Assembly: GCA_964016885.1 (NCBI GenBank)
Contig: OZ024743.1
Span: 311,798,001-311,862,000 of the forward strand
Length of the DNA: 64,000 nucleotides
Source of the DNA: Eledone cirrhosa
Taxonomy: Eukaryota
Reading direction: 5' to 3'
Shown here: positions 2,629-61,267 of the stretch, piece after piece
How the letters are laid out: every line of letters starts with the position of its first letter
Numbering within the stretch: position 1 is the stretch's first letter
Program-made: the position numbers and the translations under genes
The notes under the pieces: model-generated
What the model saw: only the letters and a program-made list of their open reading frames with translations
The model's database searches: none
Told to the model about the DNA's origin: nothing

Positions 2629-3338
2629 TTATAAACATACAGAATATTTTCGAATATTTTCGAATATTCTATGTCTATATTCACATATATATCGCTATTT
2701 CAGAGCATTTATTCCAATTTCTAATTTCTGCCGGACCGGCAACCGCTCTTTCAAACCAGTTCCTGTACACAGCTAAGTATTCTATAAGTCTCTAGCTGTG
2801 TCATTCTCGATAAAAGCACTGGATATGTAGTCCTGATGAGTTCTAACGAGAATGAAACGCGTAGATTACTTCCCTTGCTTTTATCGAGAATCTAATTGTA
2901 ATACGTGACGTATTCTATTCTATAGCGATTAGGTCTTCAAAATGTTTATTATAAACATACAGAATATTTTCGAATATTCTATGTCTATATTCACATATAT
3001 ATCGCTATTTCAGAGCATTTATTCCAATTTCTAATTTCTGCCGGACCGGCAACCGCTCTTTCAAACCAGTTCCTGTACACAGCTAAGTATTCTATAAGTC
3101 TCTAGCTGTGTCATTCTCGATAAAAGCACTGGATATGTAGTCCTGATGAGTTCTAACGAGAATGAAACGCGTAGATTACTTCCCTTGCTTTTATCGAGAA
3201 TCTAATTGTAATACGTGACGTATTCTATTCTATAGCGATTAGGTCTTCAAAATGTTTATTATAAACATACAGAATATTTTCGAATATTCTATGTCTATAT
3301 TCACATATATATCGCTATTTCAGAGCATTTATTCCAAT
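2629..3338 (+). repeat. Inverted arm (about 2.25 units) of the 310-bp repeat, ending in (TA)n
   Basis: Reverse complement of the left array. The junction lies at the unit's own hairpin tgtttataataaaca, with a 10-bp duplication (cgaatatttt). Confidence 0.95.
2827..2869 (+). ncRNA. Type I hammerhead ribozyme (310-bp family); second plus copy at 3137-3179
   Basis: GTAGTC-CTGATGA-GTTCT(AACG)AGAAT-GAAA-C(GC)G-TA^-GATTAC. Stem I is GTAGTC/GATTAC and extends through TTCTCGATAAAAGCA/TGCTTTTATCGAGAA (15 bp). Predicted cleavage after 2863. Confidence 0.9.
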
Positions 3339-3380
3339 ATATATATATATATATATATATATATATATATATATATATAT

Positions 3381-4267
3381 AACGAAGGAATTGTGGTAAG
3401 GAACCAGATGGACCATTTTATAGCAGATGTGTTGGACCCCGTAATTGTTTCTTTTTTGTTACTACACCATTTCTACAATTTCTAAATTCCTTATTAAGTA
3501 TTTTTTTTCTCAACTTATTATCCTGTCATCGTAAGTTAGCATTGGCTGAATACGCTTTACTAACTATTTATAGCAGCGGTGTTAGACGCCCTGTAAAGCC
3601 GGCTTTAAAAATGTTTTTCCCTACCAACTGCAATCTCGTTTTTTTCCCATTCTCTACCTATTAAACTTTTCTATAGCTTAGCAATACTTACTAATTTTTA
3701 GCAGCTGATTTTGTTTTTTTCATTTCTCACTATCAATATTGTCTTCATATGTTTATTTTTATAAATAGTTTTATTTTACTCCCTTTCGACCTACCTATTA
3801 TTTCACACACACACACACACCCCTCCTTTTCTCCAGTAAAATTTTTCGACCTTTTATACACTATCCTTAGAATCTGCTGTATAGATTTCACTTTCAACGC
3901 CTGACTGGATTTCCCCCCTCCCTCTTTGTTCTACCGGCAAGTTCAGCCACCAAATGCCATGATAGATTTATCTGTCTTTATAACAAATTTTAACCGAACA
4001 TCTTGACAATTACTATCTTCCCATATAAGGAAATTCCCCTTGAGAAGTTTGGCTATTTATTTACCAGGCTAAAAATTCTTATTTAGTCCAGAAATAGCCG
4101 TCGAAACGGCTTGAGCTCTGCCGTCGGGGTCATACTTGTTCCTATTATATATATATATATATATATATATATAAAGTACTTTTTTTTATTACCCACTCTA
4201 CTACCCTAAGTATTGAGTACTCTGGTGCGTTATGTTCCATCTGGTTCCTTACCACAACTCCTTCGTT
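3381..4267 (+). mobile_element. About 850-bp non-coding TA-flanked element with short inverted 3' tail at the left end and variant HHR; tail fragments recur at about 23968-24095, 35023-35225, 37113-37191, 42377-42569, 60853-60981
   Basis: 3381-3416 is the inverted copy of about 4232-4267. The shared tail motifs gtattgagtac...ccttcgtt and gccgtcgaaacggcttgagctc occur in the other copies, all abutting (TA)n. Confidence 0.7.
4036..4118 (+). ncRNA. Putative U3-A8 variant hammerhead with long stem II (degenerate stem I)
   Basis: TTGAGAA (4040-4046), stem II GGCTATTT/AAATAGCC with inner hairpin GGCTAAA/TTTAGTC, then GAAA-CGGC-TT. Stem I is poorly paired in this copy. Confidence 0.5.
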
Positions 4268-4319
4268 ATATATATATATATATATATATATATATATATA
4301 TATATATATATATATATAT

Positions 4320-58127: not shown

Positions 58128-59245
58128 AAATGGAAAAGAATGAAACTAAATTTCATTTCTCACTCTTAGTACGGCTGATACTTAAATATAAGTATGTATA
58201 CGTACATACATATATGTATACAGACGTACAGTAGTATATATATACATACATGCACACATATATATATGTACGTAGGGGTTTACCGGACATTTATTATAAT
58301 GTTTGGTTTGTCTGTAAACAGACAGCCCGAATTACGCCGTACAGTGCTCGGCAACCATCGTCGCCCTTTTGTTCAACACTGACACAGGAACAATGTACTT
58401 GTTTCAAGCTTATTAGCTATCGTCAGCATCGTATACCTTTTTGAAAGTATATACTTTCCTTATACATATTAACAGCTGAGCAGCTTAATTTGCATACCGA
58501 GTGAGTTAGTCGGCCGGGTGTACCGAAAACGATAAATGGAAAAGAATGAAACGAAATTTCATTTCTCACTCTTAGTACGGCTGATACTTAAATATAAGTA
58601 TGTATACGTACATAGATATATGTATACAGACGTACAGTAGTATGTATATATATACATACATGCACACATATTTATATGTACGTAGGGGTTTACCGAACAT
58701 TTATTATAATGTTCGGTTTGTTTGTAAACAAACAGCCCGAATTAAGCCGTACAGTGTATAATAAATGTGTGAATATATGTATGTATATACACACTACTGT
58801 ACGTCAGTATACATATATGTATGTACGTATACATACTTATATTTAAGTATCAGCCATACTAAGAGTGAGAAATGAAATTTCATTTTTTCAACTTATCGTT
58901 TTCGGTACGCCGAGCCGACTAACTCACCCGATATGCAAATTAGGCTGCTCAGCCGTTAATATGCATAAGGAAAGTATATACTTTCAAACGTTCAATCGAC
59001 TGACAGGAAGCTATACGATCCTGATGACAGGTAATAAGCTAGGAACTAGTTCATCGTTCCTTTGTCAGTGTTGAACAAAAGGGCAACGATGGTTGGCGAA
59101 CACTGTACGGCTTAATTCGAGTTGTTTTTTTACATTATAATAAATGTTCGGTAAACCCGTACGTACATATATATATATGTATGCATGTATATACACACTA
59201 CTGTACGTCTGTATACATATATGTATGTACGTATACATACTTATA
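58128..59245. mobile_element. 425-bp HHR family: about 1.5 tandem units (sense -) plus inverted arm (sense +)
   Basis: Unit start recurs at 58128 and about 58534, and the inversion is at about 58757. HHRs at 58390-58432 (-, CTGACGA core intact) and 59015-59057 (+, GAAA changed to GGAA, degenerate). Confidence 0.88.
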
Positions 59246-59995
59246 TTATGTATATATACATATATAAATATATATATATACACATATATATGTATATATA
59301 TATATATATATATATACATATATGTATATATATATATATACATATTCTAATCGATCGACTTTCATCAAATCGGACCAATTGGTCTTTCCAATTGCTAATA
59401 TTATCTATCGGTCGCAACTCCAGGTAGAAGAAGCAACGTGAAATAAAGTGTCTTGCTCAAGGACATAACGCATCGCCTGGTCCAGGAATCGAACTCACAA
59501 CCTTACGATTGCGAATCCAATTCTCTAACCACTCAGCCACACGCCTTCACTATATATATATATATATATATATATATATATATATATATATATATATATA
59601 TATATATATATATATATATATATATATATATATATATATATATATATATATATATATATATATATATATATATATATATATATATATATATATATATATA
59701 TATATATATATATATATATATATATATATATATATATATATATATATATATATATATATATATACATATGTACATATATACATATGTACATATATATACA
59801 TATATATATATATACATATTGTTATACTTTGGGAGGGTCATGTTGCCAATAAGAAACACACGCACCAGTCGCTTTCACTTCAATTTATTATATATTTATA
59901 AATTTACAAATTTATAAATTTCTGGTTGGTTGGTTCCACAACCAGATAGTTGTTTATATATATAGTCATAGTTCTTTCGAAAGAAAGGAATCCCC

Positions 59996-60040
59996 AGTCA
60001 CTGAAGAGGTCACAGAGTGTGTGACGAAAGAACTATGACT
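59996..60040 (+). ncRNA. Type I hammerhead ribozyme in solo PLE tail palindrome (59817-60245)
   Basis: AGTCA-CTGAAGA-G-GTCACA(GAGTG)TGTGAC-GAAA-G(AA)C-TA^-TGACT. Confidence 0.85.
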
Positions 60041-61267
60041 ATATATAAACAACTATCTGGTTGTGGAACCAACCAACCAACCAGAAATTTATAAATTTGT
60101 AAATTTATAAATATATAATAAATTGAAGTGAAACAACTGGTGCGTGTGTTTCTTATTGGCAACATGACCCTCCCAAAGTATAACAATATCGGTTTCAACA
60201 CACGATTTCAGATAAAGAATCTTGCTAAACAAATTCAGAAACGAAATATATATACATACATATACATATATATACATATATATATATTTATATACATATA
60301 TATATATATGTATATACATATATATATATATGTATATAAATATATATGTATATGTATATATATATATGTTAATGTATATATATATATATATATATATATA
60401 TATATATATATATATATATATATATATATATATATAAATGAAAAGTATAGAAATTATTGTAGCAAGAAGCCAATAGTATTCCATAATATATAAGTGACTC
60501 TCGCGTCAAAATGGAAAAATAGTTAACGTAAGATGTGGGAAAATAATTCAAACTCAATTAAAAAAGAATCAGGATATTGATTCATCCACAGAATTTGGTG
60601 AAATCTAGGGAAAAATCAATAGAGCCTTAACTCAGAATAAAATAAAGTTTAAAATACTCATCCTTCAATATCATATATATATATATATATATATATATAT
60701 ATATATATATATATATATATGTATATATATATGTATACATATATATATACATATATTTATATATATATATCTGTATATATATATGTATACATATATATAC
60801 ATAAACATATATATATACATATATATATATATATATATATATATATATATATAGGGACGAGTAGGACCCCGACGGCTGAGCTCAAGCCGTTTCGACGGCT
60901 AATTCTGGACTCTACTACCCTAAGTATTGAGTACTTTGGTGTGTTATGGTCCACCTGGTTCCTTACCACATTTCCTTCGTTATATATATATATATATATA
61001 TATATATATATATATATATATATATATATATATATACACACATATATATATACATATATACAGTATTTACATATCGAGAGAGAGAAAAAAAGGGGAGGAT
61101 AGGTGATACATATAGTTATTTGCCAAGTAGCGTATGCCAAAGGTGCTCGATACTAGTGTCGGCAGTATTAAATATTCGAAGTGTTAATATTTAGTGGGCT
61201 AGAGAGTAAGCACGTGGAAAAGTAAGAAATTGGAGAATAGACCGTTAAAACACGTTTATTTAAAACA

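Follow-up and report, generated by a model that had tools for sequence, protein, structure and literature searches.

The window analysed here, a stretch of 64,000 nt from contig OZ024743.1 of Eledone cirrhosa, is animal-type, repeat-rich DNA with many (TA)n tracts, into which Penelope-like elements (PLEs) and hammerhead-bearing families have inserted as pairs of inverted arms. A first-pass annotation of the window listed twelve such insertions, comprising one coding PLE (12104-15410) and copies of family A (1-3338), family B (3381-4267, 35023, 42377 and 60853), family C (6288, 11336 and 58128), family D (35297 and 59817) and family E (40470). Inverted arms were sought by self-BLAST and family alignments, with script inspection only for 30900-34800 and 43000-45000, and inverted arms or opposite-strand pieces of one family were present at all twelve places. 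As the annotation had stated, the left arm is minus-sense and the right arm plus-sense in 12/12, the firmness of the sense varying by family, and the 3' ends adjoin (TA)n wherever the end falls within the window, the TA being interrupted at 59817 on the left and at 58128 on the right. Its statement that the pairs always face outward thus agrees with all twelve cases, but it is partly a consequence of definition, because any target-primed junction is a 3' end and because tail-to-tail neighbours sharing a TA tract (3338 and 3381, 15398 and 15413, 35225 and 35297) are counted as separate insertions. The two-armed layout is not universal, since one-armed insertions of hammerhead families with TA on both sides occur at 4321-5227 (plus strand), 60437-60672 (minus) and 15413-17033 (minus), the first two terminating at one common site.

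The annotation had also placed 3' tails at both junctions, and this description does not hold. Each family shows two fixed 3' ends, an internal one (S) and a distal one (L), 38-82 nt apart, and in 10 of the 12 listed cases one arm ends at S while the other continues for 39-82 nt to L (60853 being assigned from the alignment). The extra length of the long arm amounts to 60, 68 and 58 nt in family C, 82 and 80 nt in family B, 57 and 59 nt in family D, 68 nt in family E and 39 nt in the coding PLE. The family A insertion cannot be scored, its left end lying outside the window. The insertion delimited as 3381-4267 has L at both outer ends and an internal junction of S with (TA)14 at 4145; by our own reckoning it is probably an L/S pair (3382-4145) followed by a separate tail-only insertion (4174-4266). 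Among the pairs of families B, C and D for which several copies define both sites, S and L are mixed in 8/8, an outcome with a chance of at most 0.5^8 = 0.004 given free choice by each arm, and three unlisted pairs (23967, 52277 and 53063) likewise have unequal ends. The S sites lie mostly at TAT and mostly hold TAT or TATT, with 3-5 nt of TA-like sequence in 6/7 families (combined p 0.04, post hoc), and folding of S plus tail from the seven families gave no structure in common.

The left arm of the coding PLE (12105-13968, minus strand) carries a 5'-truncated open reading frame (ORF; 12617-13969, free of stops) for reverse transcriptase (RT) and GIY-YIG endonuclease (EN), a pseudo-long terminal repeat (pLTR) and an S end, and the right arm (13969-15398, plus strand) carries the end of the ORF, the pLTR, a 39-nt tail (15360-15398) and an L end. 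The right arm begins at the centre of a TGTACA palindrome and contains two forward jumps with 2 and 1 nt of overlap. In Pfam, the ORF matches RVT_1 above the cut-off (E 1e-10) and GIY-YIG below it (E 5e-4; 20.7 bits against a cut-off of 22.6), and 40 homologues were found, with RT and some GIY-YIG annotation. The element is an EN+ PLE, with a single ORF in which RT is followed by a C-terminal GIY-YIG domain, and it combines a pLTR, a one-sided tail and an inverted 5'-truncated copy. When compared with Neptune and Nematis, the CCHH positions are conserved, and the linker reads C-x4-C with a third cysteine 7 residues on, rather than CxxC, a spacing that is similar in 6 homologues. A degenerate hammerhead-like motif is apparent in the pLTR near 15105-15140 by eye and by folding only, the strict scan and Rfam being negative there.

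The sense of the arms is firm for the coding PLE, through its ORF, and for families A and C, the two families that the strict hammerhead scan detected (families B, D and E and the coding PLE were missed by it). Family A has eight hammerheads on the minus strand and two on the plus strand, and family C has hammerheads at 6905 (plus), 11647 (minus) and 58426 (minus). For family D the sense follows from a hammerhead recognized by eye near 59998 (plus) and from homology to the pLTR behind a GIY-YIG-like ORF at 20618-21115, and for family B from a U3-A8 variant core recognized by eye in one copy only (4036-4135). The assignment is weakest for family E, where a putative hammerhead 3' half, alike to family A in 20/23 columns, suggests the sense. 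A search of the window against Rfam returned no match at the gathering score; among the best 150 of 272 matches by E-value, nearly all were to hairpin microRNA models and none to a hammerhead, and they were dismissed as chance.

Families A and C, delimited by hammerhead scan and alignment, are built of tandem non-coding units with hammerheads, as in retrozymes. In family A, ten hammerhead motifs are spaced 310 bp apart: the retrozyme-like left arm (1-2629, minus) holds eight of them and has its 3' end off-window, and the right arm (2622-3338, plus) comprises 2.3 units and ends at (TA)n, the arms sharing 8 nt of microhomology at 2622-2629. All 8 full units of the left arm are identical to the right-arm unit, as are both right-arm units, an identity that could reflect rolling-circle copying from a single circular RNA, an array of very recent origin or a collapse in the assembly. 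The units of family C measure about 420 bp, and no arm has two complete motifs. At 6288 the left arm (6289-6767, minus) is just longer than one unit and ends at L with a 60-nt tail, and the right arm (6766-7144, plus) has a hammerhead at 6905-6935 and ends at S. At 11336 the left arm (11338-11875, minus) has a hammerhead, an expanded internal TA tract (11403-11455) and an S end, and the right arm (11872-11936, plus) is tail only, running from S to L, with 4 nt of microhomology. At 58128 a left arm of 1.5 units (58129-58757, minus) ends at L with a 58-nt tail and the right arm (58758-59245, plus) ends at S, with a short forward jump near the junction recognized by eye.

Family B is represented, by alignment, at four listed and two unlisted places. 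At 35023, a left arm ending at S (35024-35087, minus) faces a right arm ending at L with an 82-nt tail (35088-35225, plus; S boundary after 35144); at 42377, a left arm ending at L with an 80-nt tail (42378-42509, minus) faces a right arm ending at S (42510-42567, plus); and at 60853, a left arm ending at S (60854-60914, minus), with sequence that the right arm lacks, faces a tail-only right arm ending at L (60909-60980, plus), with 6 nt of microhomology at 60909-60914. The composite at 3381 consists of roughly the last 37 nt of the tail, with its L end at (TA)n (3382-3417, minus), of a piece whose sequence, alignment and fold indicate a hammerhead with a U3-A8 variant core and which ends at S before (TA)14 (4036-4145, plus), and of a tail-only piece with an L end (4174-4266, plus) that is probably the second insertion in that TA tract. 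The approximately 620 bp between the first two pieces (3418-4035) have no match elsewhere in the window and may be an upstream part of family B. An unlisted tail-only piece with an L end lies between two TA tracts at 37107-37190 (plus). Self-BLAST and alignment also reveal an unlisted old pair at 23967-24104, in which the minus left arm ends mid-tail at (TA)n and the plus right arm ends near S without TA. Putative micro-arms of 6-7 bases ahead of the tail-only pieces at 4174 and 37107 are at chance level and were not counted. The hammerhead-like core TTGAGAA is seen in two unrelated families, at 4036-4135 (plus) and at about 61270-61310 (minus), and it matches the U3-A8 covariant core described in PMC4209133. 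Both in the window and in read joints, most family B arms begin at their 5' end a little upstream of the 3' strand of hammerhead stem II (35081-35100 and equivalents in other copies), a concentration that suggests a stall site or an RNA start.

Alignment places family D at 35297, with a left arm ending at L with a 57-nt tail (35297-35440, minus) and a right arm ending at S (35441-35537, plus), both with approximate inner boundaries, and at 59817, with a left arm ending at S (59817-59980, minus) and a hammerhead-bearing right arm ending at L with a 59-nt tail (59981-60247, plus). The family E pair has a left arm with the longer end and a 68-nt tail (40469-40593, minus) and a right arm with the candidate hammerhead 3' half and the shorter end (40594-40649, plus). 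Two further unlisted pairs complete the set. The first, at 52277-52563, lies between TA tracts; its arms show 0 mismatches in 115 positions, and the right arm extends 51 nt further. The second, an old pair at 53063-53291, has a minus left arm with a 38-nt tail, homologous to the tail of the coding PLE (28/33 identical), and a plus right arm with the short end.

The junctions between arms vary. Overlap was measured at four loci, and the microhomology that the annotation had proposed to join the arms is present at three of them (8 nt in family A, 6 nt at 60853 and 4 nt at 11336) and missing from the fourth, the blunt, 0-nt junction at 42377. These measurements exclude 6288 and 59817, which are unanchored, as well as 35297, 58128, 40470, 52277, 53063, 23967 and 3381, and a value obtained for 35023 is invalid, because the reference sequence comes from that very locus. 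The junction of the coding PLE is the zero-spacer TGTACA palindrome. That the junctions differ between copies indicates that the inversion is made anew. Furthermore, the arms are in several cases not nested, each having sequence missing from the other. At 60853 and 11336 the long arm consists of the tail alone, starting at or just after S, and the S arm has, respectively, about 60 nt and about 530 nt that the long arm lacks; the same non-nested relation is found at 3381-4145 and in 9/10 head-to-head joints in reads, and either arm of the coding PLE lacks some sequence of the other. Arms drawn from non-overlapping parts of the RNA, as in L1-type inversions, are seen at 60853, at 3381-4145 and in those 9/10 read joints, and not at 42377, 35023 or 35297. 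Comparison of the two arms of the coding PLE shows differences at 8 of about 475 sites, plus indels, in the untranslated region (UTR) and at 1 of 762 sites in the ORF (Fisher p 0.003), which fits two source templates, although conversion near the centre could have produced this pattern instead.

The two ends of family B could be examined beyond the window by aligning public runs to a single arm, 35088-35225. Two restriction-site-associated DNA (RAD) runs with the same species label gave 19,216 and 22,232 aligned reads, and a contig set from a third sample gave 14,430 aligned records; a run from another organism gave 0 records, which does not prove absence. Both ends, followed by (TA)n, recur in the reads of the two other samples and in the contigs of the third: S as a pile at 35147 (3150 and 2751 reads, 38 contigs) and L as a main pile at 35224 (112 contigs and, in the two runs, 6499 and 8598 reads) that has variants at 35212 and 35221. 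These counts refer to the best-supported loose ends, beyond which there are 423 more. Opposite-strand joints are head-to-head in 10/11 listed and tail-to-tail in 1/11 (3 reads). In the head-to-head joints the tailed arm starts at or beyond 35141 in 9/10 and within 35140-35155, around S at 35144, in 6/10. Such joints are a biased sample: a joint cannot be seen if its two arms both lie upstream of 35088, short insertions are favoured by the read length of 150 nt, many joints share a single RAD start, and long TA tracts would hide any tail-to-tail joint that spans them.

Published work already describes much of this layout. In Craig et al. (2021; PMC8557442), an inverted 5'-truncated copy at the 5' end and a 30-40 bp tail, often at one end only, are reported, together with (TA)n targets in Naiad and Hydra and a microsatellite bias in Neptune, and the origin of inverted repeats and tails is named as unresolved. 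Arkhipova et al. (2013; PMC3846280) give head-to-head as the commonest arrangement, with palindromes at junctions, and note the layout also with ordinary target duplications. Working in vitro with PAc, a Poseidon element, Frangieh et al. (2024; PMC11167929) found two RT start sites that bracket the tail, with both target strands cut and extended, and predicted a dimer. The annotation's premise that PLE insertions often carry an inverted 5' pLTR is in line with PMC8557442 and PMC3846280. Its proposal that both ends of a target break prime reverse transcription is favoured by the non-nested arms, but it missed that the ends are unequal, S being paired with L and the difference between them being the known PLE tail.

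From the two fixed ends, their pairing in the window, the non-nested arms and the variety of junctions, we infer a route in which each target end serves as a primer, L being used by one of them and S by the second, and we give this reading a probability of roughly 0.55. The GIY-YIG endonuclease would cut both strands of a (TA)n tract, a step with in vitro precedent in one Poseidon element. One target 3' end would then prime at the distal L and the other at the internal S, 38-82 nt upstream. The two antisense cDNAs would stop variably, the L cDNA often halting at S, presumably where the second primer sits, or alternatively passing it. Their 3' ends would be joined through 0-8 nt of microhomology or a micro-palindrome and filled in, leaving outward-facing arms and a single tail, or a one-armed tailed copy if the S cDNA were negligible. 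With the same slight preponderance, we read the insertions as ordinary units that paired target-primed reverse transcription has produced from endonuclease-bearing PLEs and from non-coding derivatives of these with hammerheads. A broader version is tentative and falls somewhat short of an even chance: tail and inverted pLTR would be marks of one reaction, in which a dimeric PLE enzyme loads the cut ends on two fixed sites of the RNA, one end on each, so that programmed twin priming would be the normal integration route, replacing ordinary second-strand synthesis, and non-coding hammerhead RNAs would carry the same two-site signal. There is also a small chance that part of the flanking (TA)n was added by the telomerase-related RT through repeated copying of TAT at the S and L sites.

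Several observations weigh against priming at both ends. Most cases in the window are nested, and few or no differences separate the arms at 42377 (0/52 differences), 40470 (0/56), 52277 (0/115), 11336 (1/65) and 59817 (1/156); these nested, near-identical pairs are what a cDNA folding back on itself would give, and they also fit one RNA read twice or later conversion. Later loss of palindrome centres can also mimic non-nested arms. Taken as a single insertion, 3381-4267 shows L at both outer ends, and the TA microhomology at S is only modest on the post hoc test given above. Among reads that cover the region upstream of S, only 27% and 21% end at S, and the share of S among loose ends is 27%, 19% and 17%, with L to S at about 3-5 to 1 in reads and contigs; this low share means that many L arms lack a long S partner or that L/L pairs exist, although RAD sampling and poorer mapping of the 53-nt S pieces may bias it. 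The read joints, for their part, carry the biases of upstream blindness and shared RAD starts described above. In the in vitro work of PMC11167929 the start site did not differ between the strands, nor was there homology at it. Finally, neither an empty site nor a target duplication was seen, such duplications being unreadable inside (TA)n. 

The main alternative is single priming at L. A short inverted repeat would then let the 3' end of the cDNA fold back, with copying in the sense direction, and at the TAT of S the new strand would either be cleaved by the endonuclease or anneal to the second target end. Junctions at palindromes, near-identical nested arms with common subfamily variants, the excess of L arms in reads and the closeness of TAT or TATT at the S sites to the ATT cleavage motif of PMC11167929 all speak for it, and PMC8557442 gives "EN-mediated resolution" as the most likely origin of the tail. 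A copy made in this way would be nested in the long arm, and the tail-only long arms at 60853 and 11336 hence count against it, as does the sequence that the S arm has and the L arm lacks at those loci, at 3381-4145, at 12104 and in 9/10 read joints. Tail-only arms, moreover, start near S, which later random deletion does not predict; where an L arm has nothing but the tail, as several do, the two arms cannot be copies of each other, and this favours priming at both ends. The UTR differences between the arms of the coding PLE and the arms at 58128, which differ by 10.1% against 4.5% between units within one arm, point the same way, and a zero-loop TGTACA centre would presumably make a poor intramolecular hairpin. 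We therefore regard folding back as unlikely, while taking it seriously.

The form of two-end priming put forward in the annotation, in which each self-complementary (TA)n end captures RNA independently, primes at its 3' end and yields uncoupled arms, accommodates the outward geometry in 12/12, the (TA)n at both ends, the arm differences at 12104 and 58128 and the two outer L ends of 3381-4267. It does not predict one S and one L in 8/8 well-defined pairs, nor tail-only arms beginning at S, nor the subfamily variants common to both arms at 42377, 11336, 35297 and 59817 when other subfamilies exist, and it appears improbable. We give an equally poor prospect to self-priming on an antisense RNA template, proposed in PMC3846280 to explain the head-to-head layout and consistent with palindromes at junctions, or to the re-mobilization of hairpin transcripts from two-armed loci: self-priming predicts nested arms, inherited hairpins predict common junctions where the copies of B, C and D and the 10 head-to-head types of read joint differ, and in vitro it is the sense RNA that is target-primed (PMC11167929). 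Least probable of all is that the inversions arose after insertion through host replication or repair at TA tracts, or through assembly artefacts. The TA-centred inverted duplication at 52598-52837 and the palindromes at 8569-8650 and 22973-23126, without TA flanks, could be read in this manner, but at independent loci the short arms of a family all terminate at one site specific to that family, and the presence of inverted joints and of both ends in raw reads from other samples largely refutes this explanation for family B.

Neither these three symmetrical palindromes nor a 44-bp one at 51884-51927 entered the S/L count, as nothing was found to link them to PLEs; any that proved PLE-derived would count against strict pairing. 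The duplication at 52598-52837 is near-perfect (1 mismatch in 118), is centred on a 50-bp TA tract, has TA at both outer edges and no further match in the window, and resembles a fold-back at (TA)n in which no PLE took part. The other three adjoin copies of a short dispersed repeat and lack TA flanks. Three broken PLEs were also observed: one at 28488-30140 (minus) with RT, a weak GIY-YIG match and a CX4CxxC linker in 28491-29090; one at 20400-21620 (plus) with a pLTR related to family D and the same S-like end motif before (TA)n; and a 5'-truncated one at 61100-63219 (minus), whose stretch 61687-63218 has a CNCRDRGRC (CxCX5C) linker upstream of a GIY-YIG-like motif. The last of these has no Pfam match and lacks both CCHH cysteines, and its motifs would place it provisionally in the Hydra clade. 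Other features include a tail-sized, unique 70-bp piece between two TA tracts (12002-12071), TA-adjacent repeats (17322-18189 and 57437-57707; 5251-5408, 21905-21967 and 45985-46139) and two LTR-like direct repeats, each about 390 bp long (18283-18665 and 19948-20340). An abundant dispersed repeat of about 190 bp (9675-9865 and more than 10 other copies) presumably resembles octopus short interspersed elements.

Relative to the complex insertions of EN+ PLEs in PMC8557442 and PMC3846280, the insertions described here share the head-to-head inverted copy, the junction palindromes, the one-sided tail and the pLTR hammerheads, as well as (TA)n or microsatellite targets in which target duplications cannot be read. 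They differ in their tails, 57-82 nt in families B-E against the 30-40 bp published there, and in the tail-only arms that start at S, which were not met in the published descriptions compared. With Poseidon PAc they share two fixed start sites around the tail, the cutting and extension of both strands and AT-rich targets; here, however, the ends are paired as S and L, S mostly with 3-5 nt of TA-like sequence, whereas the main text of PMC11167929 makes no tie between the two sites and the two arms, and the coding elements carry a linker zinc-finger-like motif that is absent in Poseidon. In L1 twin priming, as summarized in the passage of PMC9148063 citing Ostertag and Kazazian (2001), the second target end primes internally on the RNA and gives a head-to-head inverted 5' segment; as against that summary, there is no poly(A) here, the second site is fixed per family, the arms often overlap and the layout is frequent. 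Families A (310 bp) and C (about 420 bp) resemble non-LTR retrozymes in their non-coding tandem units with a type I hammerhead each, and PMC4209133 describes hammerhead pairs 100-700 bp apart on opposite strands. In contrast to such retrozymes, family C has the PLE signature of inverted arm and tail, and family A the inverted arm, which lends structural support to PLE-driven insertion. This accords with the argument, in bioRxiv 10.64898/2026.07.22.740005, that animal retrozymes are non-autonomous PLE derivatives. The annotation's view that the non-coding families use PLE enzymes is thus a published proposal. For family D, and less surely for B and E, the insertions may simply be coding PLEs copied over a very short length.

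Head-to-head pLTRs, the one-sided tail, (TA)n targeting and non-coding derivatives are already published for PLEs. What is added here is that the L arm is in several cases no more than a tail that begins at S, and this suggests paired S and L ends as a testable refinement of the mechanism. A statement that each target end has its own start site was not found in the literature searched, although older Penelope papers, figures and supplements may show it. The in vitro system already available would allow a test in which the two ends of individual products are linked, and the Eledone cirrhosa genome, where short insertions of family B are extremely numerous, is suited to direct counting of S and L pairing. 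Were L used at one target end and S at the other, the inverted copy, the one-sided tail and the tail-only fragments would all follow from one mechanism.

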